Shown: positions 14,384-26,647, counted from the stretch's first letter. The stretch: DNA of 64,000 nt from Escherichia coli (GCF_003790525.1 NZ_CP033635.1); one strand, 5' to 3'. Numbers and translations are program-made. The notes: generated by a model from the letters alone, not told the origin.

Positions 14384-15319
14384 ATGGCACTGCCAATTCT
14401 GTTAGATTGCGACCCAGGTCATGACGACGCTATCGCAATCGTTCTCGCCCTCGCCTCACCAGAGCTTGATGTCAAAGCAATTACGTCTTCCGCCGGAAAC
14501 CAGACACCAGAAAAAACCTTACGCAATGTTCTGTGTATGCTGACCTTGCTTAATCGCACCGATATTCCGGTAGCAAGCGGTGCGGTAAAACCATTAATGC
14601 GTGATTTGATTATCGCGGACAATGTGCACGGCGAAAGCGGTCTCGACGGCCCGGCATTACCGGAACCGACGTTCGCACCGCAAAACTGTACGGCGGTGGA
14701 GCTGATGGCGAAAACGCTGTGTGAAAGTGAGGAACCTGTCACCATTGTTTCTACCGGACCGCAAACTAACGTTGCCTTGCTGCTCAATAGCCACCCGGAA
14801 CTGCATAGCAAAATTGCCCGTATCGTGATTATGGGCGGCGCAATGGGGCTTGGTAACTGGACGCCTGCGGCTGAATTTAATATTTACGTTGACCCGGAAG
14901 CGGCAGAAATTGTCTTCCAGTCAGGGATCCCGGTGGTGATGGCCGGTCTGGATGTTACTCACAAAGCACAAATTCACGTTGAGGACACCGAGCGTTTCCG
15001 CGCCATTGGCAACCCTGTTTCAACCATTGTTGCCGAACTGCTGGATTTCTTCCTCGAATATCATAAAGACGAAAAATGGGGCTTTGTCGGCGCACCGCTG
15101 CATGACCCATGCACCATCGCCTGGCTGTTAAAACCGGAGTTGTTTACCACTGTTGAGCGCTGGGTTGGCGTGGAAACACAAGGGAAATATACCCAAGGTA
15201 TGACGGTTGTTGATTATTATTATCTGACTGGCAATAAACCGAATGCCACTGTAATGGTCGATGTTGATCGTCAGGGCTTTGTTGATTTACTGGCCGATCG
15301 TCTGAAATTTTACGCTTAA
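14384..15319 (+). CDS. rihA: pyrimidine-specific ribonucleoside hydrolase, 311 aa
   Basis: ATG 14384 with AAGGAG upstream; nucleoside hydrolase DCDPGHDD motif. Confidence 0.93.
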
Positions 15320-15402: not shown

Positions 15403-17073
15403 ATGGATAATGCAGAACTCGCCATTGGTATCGATCTCGGTACTACCAATAGTTTAATTGCCGTCTGGAAAGACGGTGCCGCGCAATTAATTCCAAATAA
15501 GTTCGGTGAATATTTAACACCATCCATAATTAGCATGGATGAAAATAATCATATTTTAGTCGGAAAACCGGCTGTATCACGGCGTACTTCGCATCCGGAT
15601 AAAACGGCAGCGTTATTTAAACGTGCAATGGGCAGTAATACCAACTGGCGGTTAGGCAGCGACACATTTAACGCGCCAGAACTGTCCTCTTTGGTATTAC
15701 GCTCATTAAAAGAAGATGCCGAAGAATTTCTGCAACGTCCGATTAAAGATGTGGTGATCTCCGTTCCGGCTTATTTCAGCGATGAACAACGCAAGCATAC
15801 CCGTTTAGCAGCGGAGTTAGCCGGGTTAAATGCGGTACGCTTAATTAATGAACCCACAGCAGCTGCGATGGCATATGGCCTGCATACGCAACAAAATACC
15901 CGCTCGCTGGTTTTTGATCTCGGTGGCGGCACGTTTGACGTCACGGTGCTCGAATACGCCACGCCGGTGATTGAAGTTCACGCCTCCGCTGGCGACAACT
16001 TTCTTGGCGGCGAAGATTTTACTCATATGCTGGTGGATGAAGTTTTAAAACGCGCCGCAGTGGCTAAAAACATGCTCAACGAAAGTGAGCTGGCAGCCCT
16101 GTACACCAGCGTGGAAGCGGCAAAATGTAGCAATCAATTACCGCTGCAAATTAGCTGGCAGTATCAGGAAGAAACGCGTGAGTGCGAATTTTACGAGAAC
16201 GAACTGGAAGATTTGTGGTTGCCGCTGCTCAATCGCTTGCGAGTGCCGATTGAACAGGCGTTGCGCGATGCACGTCTGAAGCCAAGTCAAATCGACAGTC
16301 TGGTGCTGGTTGGCGGCGCATCACAAATGCCGCTGGTGCAGCGAATCGCCGTGCGTCTGTTTGGCAAATTACCGTATCAAAGTTACGATCCGAGCACCAT
16401 TGTCGCGCTGGGCGCAGCAATCCAGGCCGCCTGCCGCTTACGCAGTGAAGATATTGAAGAAGTGATCCTCACTGATATTTGCCCCTACTCCTTAGGTGTT
16501 GAAGTTAACCGCCAGGGCGTTTCCGGCATTTTCTCACCGATTATTGAACGAAATACCACTGTGCCGGTGTCGCGAGTAGAAACTTACTCGACCATGCACC
16601 CGGAGCAGGATTCAATAACGATTAATGTTTATCAGGGAGAAAATCACAAAGTTAAGAATAATATACTGGTTGAATCCTTTGATGTTCCGCTGAAGAAAAC
16701 CGGGGCTTATCAGTCTATTGATATTCGCTTTAGTTATGATATTAACGGATTGCTTGAAGTTGACGTGCTTCTGGAAGACGGCAGCGTTAAGTCCAGAGTC
16801 ATTAACCACAGCCCGGTAACGTTAAGTACCCAGCAAATTGAAGAGAGTCGGGCACGGTTATCCGCATTAAAAATTTATCCGCGCGATATGCTCATCAACC
16901 GTACCTTTAAAGCCAAACTGGAAGAGTTATGGGCGCGGGCGCTGGGTGACGAGCGAGAAGAGATTGGCCGGGTAATCACCGATTTTGATGCGGCGCTGCA
17001 ATCAAACGATATGGCCCGCGTCGATGAAGTTCGTCGACGGGCGAGCGATTATTTGGCCATTGAGATCCCTTAA
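15403..17073 (+). CDS. hscC: Hsp70-family chaperone HscC, 556 aa
   Basis: Hsp70 ATPase motifs IGIDLGTTNS and DLGGGTFD. Confidence 0.93.
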   Translation: MDNAELAIGIDLGTTNSLIAVWKDGAAQLIPNKFGEYLTPSIISMDENNHILVGKPAVSRRTSHPDKTAALFKRAMGSNTNWRLGSDTFNAPELSSLVLRSLKEDAEEFLQRPIKDVVISVPAYFSDEQRKHTRLAAELAGLNAVRLINEPTAAAMAYGLHTQQNTRSLVFDLGGGTFDVTVLEYATPVIEVHASAGDNFLGGEDFTHMLVDEVLKRAAVAKNMLNESELAALYTSVEAAKCSNQLPLQISWQYQEETRECEFYENELEDLWLPLLNRLRVPIEQALRDARLKPSQIDSLVLVGGASQMPLVQRIAVRLFGKLPYQSYDPSTIVALGAAIQAACRLRSEDIEEVILTDICPYSLGVEVNRQGVSGIFSPIIERNTTVPVSRVETYSTMHPEQDSITINVYQGENHKVKNNILVESFDVPLKKTGAYQSIDIRFSYDINGLLEVDVLLEDGSVKSRVINHSPVTLSTQQIEESRARLSALKIYPRDMLINRTFKAKLEELWARALGDEREEIGRVITDFDAALQSNDMARVDEVRRRASDYLAIEIP

Positions 17074-17075
17074 AC

Positions 17076-17183
<108 letters not shown>

Positions 17184-18635
17184 CTAACTGAACAACATCG
17201 CGATTTTACCGATCGCGTAACCTATCACCAGCACCGTTAAGCTGATTTTGATAATGCTGGTAATGCTCTGTGGTTTTTCATCCTCATCATTTTTTTCTTC
17301 GTGGTTTTCAGGTGTTGGCTCATCGACATCTTCATCCTCCGGCTCGAGTTTCACTTTCGTCAACAGCATCCGCGTGATAATGGCCTCTAATGGATGAGCA
17401 TCTCCACCTTCCAGCCTTGTATTAAGACGGGCCAGCATCTCTTGTTTCGGGAACGCTTCCAGCACAACCTGTTCCGCTACCCGATACAAATCCAGTAACG
17501 GTGAATCTTGTTCTGTCTCGCTACCGACTCTCGATTTCCACCATGCCCATGCTTTGCGCTTGAAGAATAACGACTCAATAAACGATTGACCTAACGGCGA
17601 TAATTTTCCGCTATGTAAAATTTCCGCCCATAACAGCCGCGTCCGGGCGCTCTCACCAGGAACATATTTCAACGGTTGACCTTGCGCATCTATCATGCTT
17701 CGCGCTTCGATAACCATCACTAATAACGCGAAATAATCCGGGCAATGACGCTTGCTCCACTGCAACAACAAATTATCAGCTTGTGTAGATGGGTAACTCT
17801 CCCGGTATGCGCAGAGATCGGCAAGCAGGCTTTCCCCCTCGCCACAGTACAACCGTTGCGCACACTGGTAATAACGGGCATCTTCGCTTTCTGGATTTTC
17901 TGCTTGCCACTGTTGGGCAACAGGAATAAGTTCCGCCATACCTGTTTTCACCGAGCTGTACCAGCGCAACAGTTTGCGATGTAACTTGACATCATCAGGA
18001 ATGAACCACGGACCTTCCATTGCCATAAACGCAGTGACATAGTCAGGATGGTAACGGCAGCAGCGTTCCAGCGCGAAGTAATACTCAACAGTCTGGTTCT
18101 GCAACGCGACGGGATATTCCAGAAGGCTAAGGAAATCGAAACAATCACCAGCCTGAATGGCCTCAAGAAAAGCCTCCCTTTCTTCCTCATCCATTCCTTC
18201 GCTGTCATTAAACGAATGCCAGTTCAAACGCTCTGCCAGCAAAGAAGCACAATTTAATGAAAGATATCGCGCTTCTATAGCGACTGCACACAGCGGCCAG
18301 CGTAATTGATCGACATCCTCCATGTTCCAGGTATTTAATTGCTGAATAAATTTCTGCCAGGCGGAGGGCTGAAAACGATCACTTTCAGAATCCAGTAATG
18401 CCCTGAATGCACGTAGTATTTCATGTTCAGCGGCGGCATCTTTTTCTTCATCATCTGCTTCCTCGACAGGATTTACCGCCAGTCGCAGCGCCTCTTCATA
18501 GGCCTGGCGTAATGCTTTAAACCCCTGCGGATCGGTTTCGGGATGACACAACGGTAAGCGAGCAAGATAAGCCTGGCGGATAATGTCTATTTGCGTCGTG
18601 CTTTCAATTTCGAGGATTTGCCAACATGTTTTCAT
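17184..18635 (-). CDS. djlC: J-domain-like co-chaperone of HscC, C-terminal membrane anchor, 483 aa
   Basis: N-terminal J-like segment with HPE at the HPD position; hydrophobic C-tail; start overlaps ybeU stop by 4 nt. Confidence 0.9.
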
Positions 18636-19339
18636 AGGTCGCTCACATCCTTAAGCGTTACCGGGCATTCAGGCTGGACAGTTAATGGCTGCCAGGGAAG
18701 CGTGGCATAGAAACGGTCGCTTCCCGCTGCCAGCTCTTCGAACATCCGACTCCCGGCGCTATCGTATTTGTACAGGGTTAGCGCCTCGCGTAGCGAAGCG
18801 TTGTCTTCGCACTGAGAAGATTGCCAGTAGAGACGCCCTAACGAATAGGCGGAAAAATAGTGCATCCAGCTGTGATAGTAATGGTGTGCTCGTATATAGA
18901 CGCGCGATTGCAGCCATAAACTCTCGTCTTCCGTCAGCCACTTGTTGAGCACACCAACCCGTGATAAAAAACCCATCCGCACATAATCCCAGGCTTTGAT
19001 TCCCCCTTCCCCACAACACATAGCGGTTTGGGCAACGAATTGGGTATAAATCAACCCTCTCTCCGAGCCGCCAGCAATTAATGCTTTCCACTCTTCAGGG
19101 GAAGAGCGATGCCATGTCAGATATAAGCCAGCTAAATCATTGGCATGACCATCATCGGTCATCTGATAAATAGTCTGAATTAAATCATCACGATTATTTA
19201 TTCCCCAGGATGATGAGAGATCGAATTCTTTTATCCCGGTATACATTTTTGGCGAGTCATGCGCGGGCTTGCAACCCTGATTAAGTATTTCCATGGGCGT
19301 AGAAAGCGCAAAAAGAAGATATTGTTCTTCCTTATTCAT
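18632..19339 (-). CDS. ybeU: DUF1266-family protein, 235 aa
   Basis: translation matches recalled YbeU; paralog of the ORF at 21429-22136. Confidence 0.88.
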
Positions 19340-19440
19340 TTGTTAATAATCCCTTATGTGCATTAACTGACTACTTTTTTATTATTGATGAGTATAAACT
19401 TGACGCTTTCAAAATAAAAAGAAAATCGAAGCATTCACTC

Positions 19441-19995
19441 ATGAATAAAAAATTAATGTATATATTCGCAATATTTATAGTTGCAGCAATAACCTGTATT
19501 AGCCAACCCAAGAAAACGACGTTGCGTGATAAAGCCATGGCGAATTATGCCTTTGATTATTTAAGCTCACCGGGCAGTCTTCCATTCACCACGGCAGCCA
19601 CGGAGCTTTCCGCGATTCATGGTCACTCAACGTCGCAATATCGCCTTGGAGAATTTTATCTTCATGGTAGCGACGGTAAACCACTGGATTATACACAGGC
19701 GAGATACTGGTATGAGCAATCAGCGGAACAGGAAAATCCACGCGCGCAAAGTAAACTGGGGTGGATCTACCTCAAAGGTCTGGGGGTCAAACCCGATACC
19801 CGTAAAGCAATTCTCTGGTATAAGGAAGCAGCTGAACAAGGGTATGCTCATGCTCAATATACTTTAGGTTTGATCTACAGAAACGGCTCAGGTATTAATG
19901 TTAACCATTATGAATCTCAAAAATGGTTAAAACTGGCCGCCAAACAACATTACAAAAACGCGGAAAGATTACTTGCCGGGCTTCCCGCACATTAA
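19441..19995 (+). CDS. ybeT: Sel1-repeat (TPR-like) protein with N-terminal signal/anchor, 184 aa
   Basis: repeated ~36-aa motifs such as AQ..LG..Y..G.GV and WY..AAEQG. Confidence 0.88.
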
Positions 19996-20004
19996 CGTCG
20001 ACTG

Positions 20005-21432
20005 TCACCCGAACAGATGGAGTATTTTCCCTATCAAACCGGCAAAGATAAAAATGTAGAAAATAATTTTGATGACGCCCAGGCAGCCCGGCCCACCATC
20101 GTCAACGGGCATCGACTGCGGTTGCGGCTCCGGTTCGACGGTTTGCTTCTCGGTAAAATTTGCCGCCTGAATTAATAATCGACGAATCATTAATGCTTCC
20201 AGTGGACAACGATCTTCTGCATCAAGGCGGCTGACGATCGGCATTAATGATTCTTCTGTCGGTTGGCTGGCCTGAACTAATTGTTTAGCAACTAAATATA
20301 ATGGCCATAAGGGATGTTCTGTATCACGCGTGAGTGAGATCCGCGGCTTACGTCCTTTGTGCAAAACCATCTCGACCAGAGAACGCCCCAGCGCAGAGAG
20401 TTTTTCATCACTGAGTATTTCGTATAAATGAAAACGCGTACGAGCGCTGTCACCAGGGACATAAAGTAGCGGTTTTCCCTGATCGTTAACCAGATCACGC
20501 GCTTCAATCATCATCACCACTAACGGGTAATAATCGACCCGATGCTGACGGCACCATTGCAACATTAAAGCATCCGCCTGGGTGGAGGGATACTCGCGCC
20601 AGTAGTCACAAAGTTCTGCCAGCAGGCTTTCGCCTTCTCCACAATAGACGCGTTGCGCGTATTCATAATAACGCGCATCTTCATTATCAGGTTCAGCTTC
20701 CCGCCACGACCGGGCGTAATCCAGAAGTTCGGGGATATCCAGACGGCTTGTGCTATACCAGCGGAGTAAATTTCTGTGCAAATTTGCATCATCGGGGATA
20801 ATCACTGCGCGATGTTGCGCTAAATACAATGTCAGCCATTCTGGATGCGATGACCAAATCCGAGCGAACATTTGGTAAAAATCAATGGTGTCATTTTGTA
20901 CGGCAACGGGCAGATGCAGAATGGTCTGGAAGTTAAAAACATTCCCCTTCGCAATGGCATATAAAAAGGATTCCAGTTCTTCTTCGTCTATTTCCCCGAC
21001 GTTTTCCTCCTGCAACCACCGCAATCTTTCTGCTAATAACACCACGCACTCGAAGGATAAATGGGCAGTGTTCATGGCTATTGTGCACAGCGACCAGCGT
21101 AATTCATCAATATCTTCCATCGAGCAATAATTTAATTGCTGAATGAATCGCTGCCAGGCAGAGGGCAGAAAACGTTCGCTATCAGAGGCGAGTAACGCAC
21201 GAAAGGCGAGCAGAATTTCATGTTCTGCAACTTCATGTTCTTCTGGTTGCCAAACAGATTTAGCAGGCGACTGCGCAATCCGTAGCGCGTCCTCATACGC
21301 CTGACGAAGTTGTTTAAAACCCTGCGGATCGGTTTCTGGATGAAAGGACGGTAACAGCGCCAGATAAGCGCGGCGGATAATATCGACGTCAGTCGTTTCC
21401 TCTATTTCGAGAATCTTCCAGCAATTTTTCAT
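20005..21432 (-). CDS. djlB: J-domain-like co-chaperone paralog, C-terminal membrane anchor, 475 aa
   Basis: paralog of djlC (~75% identity over the first 50 aa, by eye); HPE at the HPD position; hydrophobic C-tail. Confidence 0.9.
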
Positions 21433-22136
21433 AGGTCGCTCATATCCTTAAGCGTTTCCGGGCATGTGGGGTAGTCAGCCAGTGGTTGCCAGGGTAAGGT
21501 CGCGTAATATGCATCGTCACTGGCAAATAATTGATAAAACATATCATTGCCGGAATCGTCGTATTCTTTACGCGCTAAGAATTCACGTAATAAAGGCAGA
21601 TCATCATCCTCGGGAGACTGCCAATATTGCCGACCAAAGGTATAACCGGCAAAGTATTGCCGCCAGTGACTATAATAACGTAGAGCCCGTAGATGAATGC
21701 GCGACTGGATCCACAGGCTTTCTTCTTCACTCAACCAGTTATTAAGTACGCCCATTCGGCTTAAAAAACCCATCCGGACATAATCCCAGGCTTTAATTCC
21801 TCCCTCACCACAGCATTCGGCGGTGCTGGCGACAAATTGCGCATAAGCCTGACCTTGCTCATTTAATTCAGCAAGATAGTCACGCCATTCACATGGCGAA
21901 TAACGAAACCAGCAGTGATAAAACCCTGCCAACCGCGCGGCATGACCGTTATCAATCATTCGGTAAATTGTGCGCAGCAGGTCATCACGGTCATCAATTC
22001 TCCAGGAGGAAGAAAGGTCAAAAAAGCGTGTACCTAAATACATTTTGGGGGATGAATGCGAAGGTAAACAGCATTCATTGCGTATTTCCATCGGAGTGGA
22101 AAGTGCAAACAATATTTTTTGCGACTCCATGTCCAT
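21429..22136 (-). CDS. ybeR: DUF1266-family protein, 235 aa
   Basis: paralog of ybeU; start chosen at the ATG at 22136 with AAGGA 9 nt upstream (ORF extends in frame to 22163). Confidence 0.85.
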
Positions 22137-22299
22137 ATAATTCATCCTTAAATATTCATTCAATGAATATTAACCACGTTGCGAGGCTCATTTATTTATA
22201 CTTTTCTGACGCAACATAATACGCATAAAATAAGGCTTACGCAAAAATGGAACACATAAAAATATAATATGTTTTATATGCAACCATAAGGAAATGATA

Positions 22300-23277
22300 A
22301 TGATTTTTACGTCAAGTTGCTGCGATAATTTATCAATAGAAAAGATTGTTAAACGTGCTGAAAAAGGCGATAGCGAGGCTCAATATATTGTTGGGTTTTA
22401 TTATAATCGCGATAGCGCAATTGACTCTCCGGACGACGAAAAAGCCTTCTACTGGCTGAAGCTTGCCGCTGAACAAGGCCATTGTGAAGCACAATATTCC
22501 TTAGGGCGGAAATACTCCGAGGATAAAAGCCGTCATAAAGATAATGAGCAAGCCATCTTTTGGCTGAAAAAAGCTGCCCTACAAGGCCATACTTTCGCTT
22601 CCAACGCCCTTGGCTGGATACTGGATCGTGGAGAAGACCCCAACTATAAAGAAGCGGTTGCCTGGTATCAGATAGCCGCGGAGAGCGGAATGCCTTATGC
22701 GCAAAATAATCTTGGATGGATGTACAGAAATGGTAACGGAGTCGCACAAGACTATGCGCTGGCATTTTTCTGGTACAAACAAGCTGCATTACAAGGCCAT
22801 AGTTACGCGCAAGACAACCTGGCCGATCTCTATAAAGACGGAGAAGGCGTTGCTCAAAACAAGACACTCGCCGCATTCTGGTATTTGAAAAGCGCACAGC
22901 AGGGTAATCGGCATGCCCAGTTTCAAATTGCATGGGATTATAACGCTGGCGAAGGGGTGGACCAGGACTATAAGCAAGCGATGTACTGGTATCTGAAGGC
23001 TGCCGCTCAGGAAAGCGTCGGCGCTTACGTCAACATCGGTTATATGTATAAACATGGACAAGGCGTTGAGAAAGATTATCAGGCCGCCTTTGAATGGTTT
23101 ATGAAAGCCGCTGAATGCAATGACGCCACTGCCTGGTATAACCTGGCCATTATGTATCACTACGGAGAAGGAAGACCTGTCGATCTCCGACAGGCTCTCG
23201 ACCTGTATCGTAAAGTTCAGGCATCCGGTACCAGGGATGTCAGTCAAGAAATCCGTGAGATTGAAGATTTACTGTAA
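22300..23277 (+). CDS. ybeQ: Sel1-repeat protein, 325 aa
   Basis: seven or more Sel1-like repeats; start at ATG 22300 with AAGGA 7 nt upstream (alternative ATG at 22294). Confidence 0.88.
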   Translation: MIFTSSCCDNLSIEKIVKRAEKGDSEAQYIVGFYYNRDSAIDSPDDEKAFYWLKLAAEQGHCEAQYSLGRKYSEDKSRHKDNEQAIFWLKKAALQGHTFASNALGWILDRGEDPNYKEAVAWYQIAAESGMPYAQNNLGWMYRNGNGVAQDYALAFFWYKQAALQGHSYAQDNLADLYKDGEGVAQNKTLAAFWYLKSAQQGNRHAQFQIAWDYNAGEGVDQDYKQAMYWYLKAAAQESVGAYVNIGYMYKHGQGVEKDYQAAFEWFMKAAECNDATAWYNLAIMYHYGEGRPVDLRQALDLYRKVQASGTRDVSQEIREIEDLL

Positions 23278-23347
23278 GAGATAAAAACAAGGGCCGGGGA
23301 ATTTTATTCGGCCCATATTCTCTTTATTGCTGTGCGAAATCAGACCA

Positions 23348-23830
23348 TTAAGGCTCGAACGGGCGTCTCTGGAACTGGTCATGACCACATTTCGGGCATA
23401 GCGTCAGCACTTCCGGTGTGTAGATTGGGAGATGGAAATGACATTTCTCGCAGACCAGATTTCCCAGCCCTACCACTTCTCCGCTGTGATAAACCCCATG
23501 ATGATTGAGGTCCTGGAAAACTTCGCGCCATTCAAGCTGCGTTTTATCGGTGATGTCTGCCAGCTCCTGCCATAAGCTTTCTTTAATCACCCGCATAAAG
23601 ACGCTGTCAGATTCTTCTTTCAGGCTCTCTTCATAGCTCATGGCGAACTCTTCCAGGTCACGTCTGACAGCTCGCGTCAGCTCATCGACCTCGGTTCGCG
23701 TTAACTCCCCTGTTTTTATTACGCGCTCGCGCGCCTGCTCCACCAGTGCGTCGATATCACGTTCCCCATTACGCAGGCGTTCGCTCAGTGACGCGACCAG
23801 TTCACGGTAATATTGAGCAACCTTGTTCAT
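23348..23830 (-). CDS. ybeL: DUF1451 protein with C-terminal CxxC...CxxC zinc-ribbon, 160 aa
   Basis: translation matches recalled YbeL; CEKCHF...CPKCGH motif. Confidence 0.88.
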   Translation of the reverse strand: MNKVAQYYRELVASLSERLRNGERDIDALVEQARERVIKTGELTRTEVDELTRAVRRDLEEFAMSYEESLKEESDSVFMRVIKESLWQELADITDKTQLEWREVFQDLNHHGVYHSGEVVGLGNLVCEKCHFHLPIYTPEVLTLCPKCGHDQFQRRPFEP

Positions 23831-24064
23831 CGTTTCATCTCCCGGGTCGTTAACTGACTATAATAATAGACGTTCTTTGTTCCTTGCTTTGCTAATACGC
23901 CCACAAACTCTGTAAATTAATGTATGAATAATCCGGGCATCATTTCAACGTCGAGTGCGCGAAAGGCTGTTTTGACGCGGACGTTTGGGCTATGCTATGC
24001 GGATCTGAAAAACCACCTCAACGCTACATTTGTAGCCGTATTGAAAACAGGACCACTGGCTGCC

Positions 24065-26647
24065 ATGCAAGAGCAATACCGCCCGGAAGAGATAGAATCC
24101 AAAGTACAGCTTCATTGGGATGAGAAGCGCACATTTGAAGTAACCGAAGACGAGAGCAAAGAGAAGTATTACTGCCTGTCTATGCTTCCCTATCCTTCTG
24201 GTCGACTACACATGGGCCACGTACGTAACTACACCATCGGTGACGTGATCGCCCGCTACCAGCGTATGCTGGGCAAAAACGTCCTGCAGCCGATCGGCTG
24301 GGACGCGTTTGGTCTGCCTGCGGAAGGCGCGGCGGTGAAAAACAACACCGCTCCGGCACCGTGGACGTACGACAACATCGCATACATGAAAAACCAGCTC
24401 AAAATGCTGGGCTTTGGTTATGACTGGAGCCGCGAGCTGGCAACCTGTACGCCGGAATACTACCGTTGGGAACAGAAATTCTTCACCGAGCTGTATAAAA
24501 AAGGCCTGGTATATAAAAAGACTTCTGCGGTCAACTGGTGCCCGAACGACCAGACCGTACTGGCGAACGAACAAGTTATCGACGGCTGCTGCTGGCGCTG
24601 CGATACCAAAGTTGAACGTAAAGAGATCCCGCAGTGGTTTATCAAAATCACCGCTTACGCTGACGAGCTGCTTAACGATCTGGATAAACTGGATCACTGG
24701 CCAGACACCGTTAAAACCATGCAGCGTAACTGGATCGGTCGTTCCGAAGGCGTGGAAATCACCTTCAACGTTAACGACTATGACAACACGCTGACCGTTT
24801 ACACTACCCGTCCGGACACCTTTATGGGTTGTAGCTACCTGGCGGTAGCGGCGGGTCATCCGCTGGCGCAGAAAGCGGCGGAAAATAATCCTGAACTGGC
24901 GGCCTTTATTGACGAATGCCGTAACACCAAAGTTGCCGAAGCTGAAATGGCAACGATGGAGAAAAAAGGCGTCGATACTGGCTTTAAAGCGGTTCACCCA
25001 TTAACGGGCGAAGAAATTCCCGTTTGGGCAGCAAACTTCGTATTGATGGAGTACGGCACGGGCGCAGTTATGGCGGTTCCGGGTCACGACCAGCGCGACT
25101 ACGAGTTTGCCTCTAAATACGGCCTGAACATCAAACCGGTTATCCTGGCAGCTGACGGCTCTGAGCCAGATCTTTCTCAGCAAGCCCTGACTGAAAAAGG
25201 CGTTCTGTTCAACTCTGGCGAGTTCAACGGTCTTGACCATGAAGCGGCCTTCAACGCCATCGCCGATAAACTGACTGCGATGGGCGTTGGCGAGCGTAAA
25301 GTGAACTACCGCCTGCGCGACTGGGGTGTTTCCCGTCAACGTTACTGGGGCGCGCCAATTCCGATGGTAACGCTGGAAGACGGCACTGTGATGCCGACCC
25401 CGGACGACCAGCTGCCGGTGATCCTGCCGGAAGATGTGGTGATGGACGGTATTACCAGCCCGATTAAAGCAGATCCGGAGTGGGCAAAAACTACCGTTAA
25501 CGGTATGCCAGCGCTGCGTGAAACCGACACTTTCGACACCTTTATGGAGTCCTCCTGGTACTATGCGCGCTACACTTGCCCGGAGTACAAAGAAGGTATG
25601 CTGGATTCCAAAGCGGCTAACTACTGGCTGCCGGTGGATATCTACATTGGTGGTATCGAACACGCCATTATGCACCTGCTCTACTTCCGCTTCTTCCACA
25701 AACTGATGCGTGATGCAGGCATGGTGAACTCTGACGAACCAGCGAAACAGTTGCTGTGTCAGGGTATGGTGCTGGCAGATGCCTTCTACTATGTTGGCGA
25801 AAACGGCGAACGTAACTGGGTTTCCCCGGTTGATGCTATCGTTGAACGTGACGAGAAAGGCCGTATCGTGAAAGCGAAAGACGCGGCAGGTCATGAACTG
25901 GTTTATACCGGCATGAGCAAAATGTCCAAGTCGAAGAACAACGGTATCGACCCGCAGGTGATGGTTGAACGTTACGGCGCGGACACCGTTCGTCTGTTTA
26001 TGATGTTTGCTTCTCCGGCGGATATGACTCTCGAATGGCAGGAATCCGGCGTGGAAGGGGCTAACCGCTTCCTGAAACGTGTCTGGAAACTGGTGTACGA
26101 GCACACAGCAAAAGGTGATGTTGCGGCACTGAACGTTGATGCGCTGACTGAAGATCAGAAAGCGCTGCGTCGCGATGTGCATAAAACTATCGCTAAAGTG
26201 ACCGATGATATCGGCCGTCGTCAGACCTTCAACACCGCTATTGCGGCGATTATGGAGCTGATGAACAAACTGGCGAAAGCACCGACCGATAGCGAGCAGG
26301 ATCGCGCCCTGATGCAGGAAGCGCTGCTGGCGGTAATCCGTATGCTTAACCCGTTCACCCCACACATCTGCTTCACGCTGTGGCAGGAACTGAAAGGCGA
26401 AGGCGATATCGACAACGCGCCGTGGCCGGTTGCTGACGAAAAAGCGATGGTGGAAGACTCCACGCTGGTCGTGGTGCAGGTTAACGGTAAAGTCCGTGCA
26501 AAAATCACCGTTCCGGTGGACGCAACGGAAGAACAGGTTCGCGAACGTGCTGGCCAGGAACATCTGGTAGCAAAATATCTTGATGGCGTTACTGTACGTA
26601 AAGTGATTTACGTACCAGGTAAACTCCTCAATCTGGTCGTTGGCTAA
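24065..26647 (+). CDS. leuS: leucyl-tRNA synthetase, 860 aa
   Basis: class I HMGH motif ([15 protein letters not shown]) and KMSKS; start [11 protein letters not shown] at 24065; ORF-track start 23924 is an upstream extension. Confidence 0.96.

Follow-up and report, generated by a model that had tools for sequence, protein, structure and literature searches.

DUF1266 as a conserved third component of the gene cassette for the HscC chaperone and its membrane-anchored J-proteins

Introduction

HscC (Hsc62) is the third Hsp70 of Escherichia coli and represents one of only three Hsp70 types in bacteria (reviews). Its ATPase is stimulated by the J-protein DjlC (Hsc56), an effect that DnaJ, CbpA and HscB lack (Kluck 2002, as summarised in PMC8215388 and PMC13254874). 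A second J-protein, DjlB, is assumed in reviews to act like DjlC, on the basis of 50% identity and gene location. In library scans HscC binds a fairly broad spectrum of peptides (review). Deletion of hscC, or of djlB and djlC together, renders cells sensitive to Cd2+, and hscC contributes to UV resistance (reviews). More than 20 years after its description, the chaperone is still without a known client, and its mechanism is still unknown according to reviews of 2021 and 2026. Here we analyse hscC and the genes adjoining it in a stretch of 64,000 nucleotides of E. coli DNA (GCF_003790525.1, NZ_CP033635.1), referred to throughout as the window, and describe proteins of the DUF1266 family, YbeU and YbeR, as constant companions of the HscC-specific J-proteins. 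An earlier note, made from the sequence of the window, had portrayed the region at 17184-23277 as a tandem duplication of a three-gene module, in which a Sel1-repeat gene is divergent from a DUF1266 gene and a gene for a membrane-anchored J-like protein (module A, ybeT and ybeU-djlC; module B, ybeQ and ybeR-djlB). It had also held that the ensemble has no established physiological role, as the two reviews confirm.

Published accounts of HscC-DjlC, the system of the window itself, describe a two-component Hsp70/J pair, with the HPE J domain, the ATPase stimulation, the finding that DjlB and DjlC are 50% identical, and the tail anchor all on record. YbeU, YbeR and the Sel1 genes go unmentioned (zero occurrences in the 2021 review). 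The HPE motif is the sole replacement of HPD that is tolerated and is typical of DjlB and DjlC (PMC8215388, PMC13254874). Membrane insertion of DjlC was demonstrated experimentally, the protein being tail-anchored in the inner membrane (Peschke 2018, as cited in a review). The HscA-HscB-IscU system is alike in combining a specialised Hsp70 that ignores DnaJ and GrpE with an adjacent, dedicated class-C J-protein and a small partner from the same gene cluster. It differs in being soluble, whereas the HscC system is membrane-anchored, and in that HscB has an HPD motif and a different C-domain; moreover, IscU has a known function and fold and DUF1266 has neither, and HscC is only about 29% identical to HscA. 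DjlA is, like DjlB and DjlC, a bacterial class-C J-protein that brings an Hsp70 to the inner membrane. However, DjlA has an N-terminal anchor, a C-terminal J domain and an HPD motif, and works with DnaK, whereas DjlB and DjlC are built the other way round, with an HPE motif and a TPR-like solenoid, and are specific for HscC. With DNAJC3/C7, Sti1/Hop, Sgt2 and Tom70 the resemblance is one of fold only, as DjlC has no Pfam TPR match and HscC no EEVD-type tail.

The ybeU-djlC and ybeR-djlB pairs are recognised as operons. Overexpression of SlyA induces ybeT as well as ybeU-djlC, and a listing of the H-NS regulon includes both; the ybeQ/ybeR-djlB promoter region figures in a promoter table as an H-NS-associated constitutive promoter (PMC3946193), and in strain 042 an hns mutation strongly de-represses one DUF1266 gene. 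A comparative paper called the YbeQ-YbeR-DjlB-YbeU-DjlC "cassette" of Salmonella LT2 and K-12 poorly characterised. A search of the literature open to searching, outside which lies the bacterial J-protein survey of Barriot 2020, returned no role for DUF1266 and no linkage of this family to HscC; nor did it return any functional study of ybeU, ybeR, ybeT or ybeQ, or any study of HscC together with phage defence or Sel1 proteins. The genes have long been annotated and the relationship between HscC and DjlB/C is published. New here is that across Gammaproteobacteria a DUF1266 gene, translationally coupled, is an invariant third member of the system, and that the true unit of duplication is apparently a gene pair.

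Results and Discussion

DUF1266, J-protein and HscC genes form a conserved cassette

The 7.9 kb from hscC to ybeQ in the window are 100% identical to E. coli SMS-3-5 (NC_010498.1), and the RefSeq annotation of that genome agrees with the list of open reading frames (ORFs) obtained from the window. Both sources support the coordinates and gene calls of the earlier note. The ybeU gene (18632-19339, minus strand) encodes a DUF1266 protein of 235 amino acids (aa), and its stop codon overlaps the start of djlC (17184-18635, minus strand, 483 aa) by 4 nucleotides (ATGA). On the other side, djlC is met convergently by hscC (15403-17073, plus strand, 556 aa), annotated in RefSeq as "molecular chaperone HscC", the specialised Hsp70 that supplies the ATPase motor. 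The arrangement recurs in ybeR (21429-22136, minus strand, 235 aa), the DUF1266 paralogue of ybeU, and djlB (20005-21432, minus strand, 475 aa), again with an ATGA overlap, so that the 4-nucleotide overlap claimed for each module was correctly read. The longest ORF of ybeR begins at a TTG at 22163; the ATG at 22136 is favoured by RefSeq and by alignment with YbeU. YbeU belongs to DUF1266 (PF06889) with E=4.4e-45 over residues 41-216. HscC scores about 380-388 bits against the NCBIfam models for DnaK and HscA, far below their cut-offs of 620-822, and its homologues measure 556-567 aa in those loci where an ORF or gene call gave the length, placing them in the HscC subfamily.

Co-occurrence was scored from the DUF1266 side, with a YbeU profile built from five sequences run against one genome per species. 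The 78 loci recovered came from Escherichia, Klebsiella spallanzanii, Rahnella, Erwinia, Pectobacterium, Limnobaculum, Gilliamella, Marinobacter and Bowmanella, with about 50 of them in Pseudomonas. A DjlB/C-like gene lies directly downstream of the DUF1266 gene, on the same strand, at 76 of the 78 loci. Just past it, in convergent orientation, an HscC-like gene is found at 74 of the 78, all exceptions ending at a contig edge. At most of the loci the DUF1266 and J-protein genes share 4 nucleotides at their stop-start junction, and the stop codons of the converging hscC and J-protein genes often overlap as well, for example in Pseudomonas. The J domain carries HPE at residues 30-33 (or at 50 where the called start lies 20 residues further out) and the C-terminus forms transmembrane helices at nearly all loci. 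The same triad surrounds remoter DUF1266 proteins, 25-40% identical to YbeU, in metagenomes and other genomes. No fourth gene around the triad was common to different genera, and the cassette thus consists of three genes. These counts bear out the co-occurrence of DUF1266 with J-domain genes that the earlier note had raised. Its picture of an Hsp70 whose J-partners are each paired with a DUF1266 and a Sel1-repeat protein survives as the conserved triple of DUF1266, J-protein and HscC; the Sel1 part is lineage-specific (see below). As what may be no more than a genus-level synteny, 23 Pseudomonas loci have a gene for a small heat-shock protein (IbpA/Hsp20-like; for instance L029, 9366-9812) immediately upstream of DUF1266.

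A single protein unites the domains covalently. P0258, a metagenomic protein of 497 aa from a short contig, fuses a DjlB/C-type HPE J domain, 50-55% identical to those of DjlC and DjlB, with TPR repeats and a C-terminal DUF1266 domain. Though one example, the fusion provides Rosetta-stone evidence that DUF1266 and the J-protein work together. Other multi-domain DUF1266 proteins have different partners: among the 42 collected, eight carry Cu_amine_oxidN1, four SLH and four to six TPR domains. Since, in addition, some DUF1266 genes sit in unrelated gene contexts, the family must be wider than the HscC system.

Three database entries close to these proteins are likely artefacts. The end of a contig labelled "Paenibacillus sp. 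USDA918EY" (L010) has 98% identity to ybeU of E. coli. The other two are in AFDB (A0A077ZGN2 and A0A2X3M2D5): a model named "Trichuris trichiura DnaJC13" that is 95% identical to YbeU, and a 627-aa E. coli "Hsc56 co-chaperone" that seems to have ybeU and djlC run together into a single ORF.

DjlB and DjlC are J-domain proteins with a variant motif

The AlphaFold 2 (AF2) model of DjlC (predicted local distance difference test score, 88.1) shows a J domain (residues 1-54, HPE at 31-33), followed after a linker by a TPR-like helical solenoid (about 72-430), a disordered acidic linker (431-457) and, as tail anchor, a transmembrane helix (458-482). DjlB has the same architecture of HPE J domain, helical solenoid and tail anchor. 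The J domain is a compact helical bundle in which helices II and III flank the motif loop. The canonical HPD is absent; HPE takes its place in DjlC, DjlB and nearly all of the 60-plus homologues. The Pfam DnaJ model (PF00226) gives a marginal E=0.036 for DjlC and E=0.063 for a Pseudomonas long form, is listed for one distant homologue and reaches E=1e-4 for P0258. NCBIfam has no model for DjlB/C or for YbeU/R. A single hydrophobic segment lies within the last 30 or so residues, the sole one by hydropathy, starting at 444-457 of 472-483 in the short forms. The hydrophobic tails that the earlier note had seen on both proteins are therefore real, by hydropathy and by the AF2 helix in DjlC, and its label "J-like" understates what are actual J-domain proteins with an HPE variant motif.

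Outside Escherichia, Salmonella and Klebsiella the J-protein is mostly 880-930 aa long (560-810 in a few cases) and ends in two or three transmembrane helices. The C-terminus of this long form matches DUF805 (E=1.8e-7; RRLHD...NRYG motifs). The tail-anchored enterobacterial form of 472-507 aa is therefore a shortened derivative, and the long form with its DUF805 anchor is ancestral.

In Salmonella DjlB (L084, 9705-11144) and in the Marinobacter homologue (L078, 10714-13503), PPE replaces HPE and the motif histidine is lost; judging from the motif, these two J domains may be inactive. An EEVD-like tail of HscC had been considered as a docking site for TPR or Sel1 repeats and was dropped, the C-terminal tails of HscC not being conserved between genera.

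The duplicated unit appears to be a pair of genes

In protein alignments DjlC and DjlB are 50% identical over their full length (E=2e-158) and YbeU and YbeR 61% identical (E=9e-109), so the earlier claim of two paralogous modules adjoining hscC stands. YbeT and YbeQ reach 37% at best, in repeat-against-repeat alignments with many alternative registers, as would any two Sel1 proteins. Comparison of the modules at the DNA level revealed collinear similarity of 66% over 1032 bp (18289-19312 against 21086-22109) and of 69% over a further 249 bp, confined to the djl and DUF1266 genes. No similarity was detectable in that comparison over the Sel1 genes, the promoters or other intergenic regions. The extended similarity that the earlier note had expected between modules was thus recovered for the DUF1266-J pair and not for the Sel1 genes, and a duplication of the three-gene module is not what these alignments show.

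Gene order in Salmonella leads to the same view. There the order is leuS - ybeL - ybeQ divergent from ybeR - djlB - ybeU - djlC, which converge with hscC, followed by a 412-aa gene and rihA. The two DUF1266-J pairs stand back to back, 11 bp apart, and ybeT is missing. Because Salmonella thus possesses two pairs without ybeT, the unit of duplication is, from the sequence comparison, most plausibly the DUF1266-to-J-protein gene pair (a co-chaperone pair) rather than three genes. Each Salmonella protein is closest to its positional E. coli counterpart: DjlC is 57% identical to it as against 50% to the other paralogue, DjlB 47% against 42%, YbeU 63% against 57% and YbeR 61% against 59%. This dates the duplication to before the Escherichia-Salmonella split. 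The simplest history would be that a DUF1266-J bicistron was duplicated in tandem, next to ybeQ as an older neighbour, and that ybeT was a later insertion in Escherichia.

Several variants of the duplication were encountered. In a derivative of E. coli B (L002, 4731-8026), djlB codons 1-41 are joined to djlC codons 38-483 in a recombinant gene, annotated as frameshifted, that represents a natural collapse of the duplication; it adjoins ybeR and a ybeQ with an internal stop. Another such collapse is seen in strain M70 (L001, 7552-8017), which has module B deleted, with only remnants of djlB and ybeQ left. Escherichia sp. MOD1-EC7003 (L006, 3648-5986) carries, between ybeL and ybeQ, a third DjlC-like tail-anchored gene, about 29% identical, without a DUF1266 partner and followed by a gene for a 321-aa secreted protein. 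The intact ORF of this third gene begins past the J-domain part, which makes the gene a possible pseudogene.

The Sel1-repeat genes are lineage-specific additions

ybeT (19441-19995, plus strand, 184 aa) and ybeQ (22300-23277, plus strand, 325 aa, or up to 327 from a possible start at 22294) both encode tandem Sel1 repeats of about 36-40 residues, and PF08238 is recorded for members of the YbeT cluster. Against NCBIfam the Sel1 proteins gave partial matches to MerG, MotX, ExoR and AlgK, all below the cut-offs. An N-terminal signal or anchor sequence distinguishes YbeT from YbeQ, which is of cytoplasmic type. YbeT homologues above 70% identity are confined to Escherichia-type sequences, and its next-best matches are generic Sel1 proteins at 31-43%, a range that includes YbeQ. 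YbeQ is kept at the same position in Salmonella, with 54.5% identity. Tblastn with ybeQ found no match in the loci of genera other than Escherichia and Salmonella, and ybeT is absent from Salmonella and from all other loci of the YbeU-profile scan outside Escherichia. No Sel1 gene stands beside the triad in the Klebsiella, Erwinia, Rahnella, Pectobacterium, Gilliamella, Pseudomonas or Marinobacter loci. The Sel1 genes are thus lineage-specific additions rather than core parts, and YbeT and YbeQ are candidate clients or adaptors of the system. YbeT would act outside the cytoplasm, which makes it an unlikely direct partner of cytosolic HscC except in the course of export.

Each Sel1 gene is separated from its neighbouring DUF1266 gene by an AT-rich divergent promoter region, at 19340-19440 between ybeU and ybeT (GC 0.38 in 19000-19499) and at 22137-22299 between ybeR and ybeQ (GC 0.37 in 22000-22499). 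The Sel1 genes would be expressed from these H-NS-silenced promoters, shared with the DUF1266-J pairs, YbeQ being presumably the older, cytoplasmic protein and YbeT an exported one found only in Escherichia.

The island is dispensable, and its genes are under purifying selection

Presence was counted at a coverage of at least 80% of each segment in 5426 complete E. coli genomes. hscC was found in 4374 of them (81%), module A in 4257 (78%), module B in 3711 (68%) and the whole hscC-ybeQ stretch in 3148 (58%). An island-free site, with rihA and ybeL only 44 bp apart, occurs in 965 of the genomes (18%). In E. coli SCU-172 the 44 bp (L003, 2101-2144; junction in the window, 15320 and 23347) form a hairpin (TCACTCGCCGGATGACATCACTCCATCCGGCACC...) that resembles neither end of the island, and the empty site is therefore not the scar of a simple excision. 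Insertions of insertion sequence (IS) elements are among the variants seen in E. coli. The strains that naturally do without the island offer clean genetic backgrounds for work on it. The island lies at the same chromosomal place in Salmonella, Klebsiella spallanzanii and the cryptic Escherichia clades; this shared position implies that its presence is ancestral.

Ratios of non-synonymous to synonymous substitution rates (dN/dS), computed pairwise for SMS-3-5 against other Escherichia, lie at 0.07-0.16 in the six genes of the modules; hscC has 0.03-0.05, and the flanking genes have 0.00-0.10 (mostly below 0.05). Orthologous module proteins of E. coli and Salmonella reach only 47-63% identity, where HscC reaches 81% and flanking proteins 91-98%. 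The module genes are under purifying selection and are several-fold less constrained than their neighbours. A pseudogene or cryptic remnant was rejected as an explanation, given intact ORFs, the dN/dS of 0.07-0.16 and a triad conserved down to 25% identity. The whole argues for a dispensable, vertically inherited accessory function of the stress type and not for a mobile defence island.

The hscC gene of SMS-3-5 is 90-95% identical to that of about 4000 E. coli genomes, with dS of 0.26-0.28 compared with about 0.04-0.17 in the flanking genes. This divergence hints at an old divergent allele or at recombination at the gene.

DUF1266 as a putative subunit of a membrane-tethered HscC machine

The best explanation overall, to which we assign a probability of roughly 0.6, is that the co-chaperone half of HscC is organised as a cassette of DUF1266, J-protein and hscC genes in which DUF1266 would be a substrate-selecting or regulatory subunit. 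Put more broadly, our best reading sees in DUF1266 a likely third subunit, and an obligate one, of an HscC machine tethered to the membrane; its part could be that of adaptor, regulator or dedicated client. This reading draws on gene order, paralogy, coupling, domain architecture, co-occurrence, one fusion and the selection regime, all of them direct observations. The J-protein is anchored in the inner membrane; in Escherichia, Salmonella and Klebsiella the anchor is a C-terminal tail, and elsewhere it is a polytopic DUF805 domain. Its HPE-type J domain activates the HscC ATPase, as published for DjlC, and its TPR-like solenoid would supply specificity. With DUF1266 as the selecting or regulatory subunit, HscC would be brought to the membrane and there remodel a limited range of targets. 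YbeU with DjlC, and YbeR with DjlB, would be made in a fixed ratio, and DUF1266 probably binds the J-protein, presumably through the solenoid, in view of the translational coupling, the invariant co-occurrence and the single fusion. After the tandem duplication of the DUF1266-J pair in the common ancestor of Escherichia and Salmonella, both copies have stayed under purifying selection. Because two diverged pairs have been retained in this way since before the split, they probably confer two non-redundant specificities on one HscC.

A more specific version makes DUF1266 the specificity factor itself. YbeU or YbeR would form a complex with the TPR-like domain of its J-protein, the conserved DUF1266 residues would serve as a ligand or client site, and the three-part machine would act on a specific, envelope-related target throughout the Gammaproteobacteria, Escherichia and Salmonella running two machines with different targets from one Hsp70. 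We put this forward tentatively, at somewhat less than even odds. The finding that a DUF1266 gene always accompanies the gene of the HscC-specific J-protein, in translational coupling, joins two orphans, a domain family and a chaperone, in a single system of three parts that can be tested.

Several observations weigh against DUF1266 as a dedicated HscC subunit. HscC, DjlB and DjlC are below the detection limit in growing E. coli (review), and the function is dispensable, as the island-free genomes attest. P0258 is the only J-DUF1266 fusion among the 42 multi-domain proteins. Four residues, His65, Asp118, Arg121 and Glu139 (YbeU numbering), are conserved across the entire DUF1266 family, including extracellular Firmicute members, fused to SLH or Cu_amine_oxidN1, that have no link to an Hsp70. 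Judged by the alignment, such family-wide residues point to an intrinsic ligand-binding or catalytic activity and not to a pure adaptor.

The same residues, together with several family-wide tryptophans (Trp117 and Trp158 of YbeU among them), lend weight to the alternative that DUF1266 is a dedicated client or effector with an activity of its own, whose folding, membrane delivery or on/off state is set by DjlB/C and HscC. The fusions to cell-surface modules (8 of 42 with Cu_amine_oxidN1, 4 of 42 with SLH) and the unrelated gene neighbours indicate that the domain can work alone, the strict 1:1 coupling would suit a client presented by its own J-protein, and HscA with IscU furnishes a precedent for a one-client Hsp70. 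We nevertheless consider this alternative unlikely, since the peptide spectrum of HscC is fairly broad and a covalent fusion of J domain and DUF1266 is commoner for a co-chaperone module than for a substrate. A quite improbable alternative gives the Sel1 proteins the status of integral subunits and has the entire block of Sel1, DUF1266 and J-protein genes duplicated, ybeT being lost later in Salmonella. The layout is alike in both Escherichia modules, with the Sel1 gene divergent from the DUF1266-J operon, YbeT and YbeQ share their 37% identity, and a TPR/Sel1-type module recurs with DUF1266 (in four to six of the 42 proteins, and in the TPR-containing J-DUF1266 fusion). However, DNA similarity vanishes over the Sel1 genes and promoters, in contrast to 66-69% in the genes beside them; YbeT, half as long as YbeQ, differs from it further in having a signal or anchor sequence; YbeT is as close to unrelated Sel1 proteins as to YbeQ; and the gene is missing both from Salmonella and, like any Sel1 gene, from beside the triad in seven other genera. 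A three-gene duplication followed by loss in Salmonella is therefore a possible history, with no positive evidence in its support.

We give very little credence to the island being an accessory conflict or defence system, anti-phage for example, with the Hsp70 and J-protein serving to detect a foreign protein or to act on it. It is true that the site is cleanly empty in 965 of the 5426 genomes and module B further eroded in others, that the locus is silenced by H-NS, that its proteins evolve faster than their neighbours (47-63% identity against 81% for HscC and 91-98% for flanking proteins), and that there has been a duplication, with an extra diverged copy in one Escherichia lineage. But PADLOC-DB v2 contains no family matching HscC, DjlC, DjlB, YbeU or YbeR at E<=0.01, and the Sel1 proteins yield only weak repeat-type matches to the N-terminus of PtuA (E 1e-4 to 2e-3). 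The proteins contain no nuclease, toxin or NTPase effector domain. No relative of YbeU was found in 2.9 million viral contigs, and there are almost no plasmid-borne copies. The fixed chromosomal position and the synteny around the triad, conserved in 20-31 Pseudomonas loci, indicate vertical inheritance rather than a mobile hotspot, and dN/dS is well below 1. The three-gene HscC cassette with DUF1266 as a likely subunit remains our preferred reading.

Flanking genes and other features of the locus

The intergenic segment between the convergent hscC and djlC genes (17074-17183) contains palindromic repeats of the repetitive extragenic palindromic (REP) type (GCCGGATGCGGCGTAAACGCCTTATCCGGCCTAC...), and short matches to these repeats across E. 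coli genomes inflate the number of places returned by a search with the locus. Consensus scans for promoters and terminators gave counts at or below shuffle expectation and were uninformative on co-transcription. In Salmonella, the 412-aa gene between hscC and rihA (L084, 15153-16391) has no family match. In the window the island is bordered on one side by rihA (14384-15319, plus strand; ORF and RefSeq). At its other edge, a terminator-like site on the plus strand (23291-23314), seen in the consensus scan alone, consists of a GC-rich hairpin followed by a T-rich stretch and lies between the convergent ybeQ and ybeL (23348-23830, minus strand; ORF and RefSeq). Beyond ybeL, the longest ORF of leuS begins at 23924 on the plus strand, and RefSeq places the start later, near 24065.

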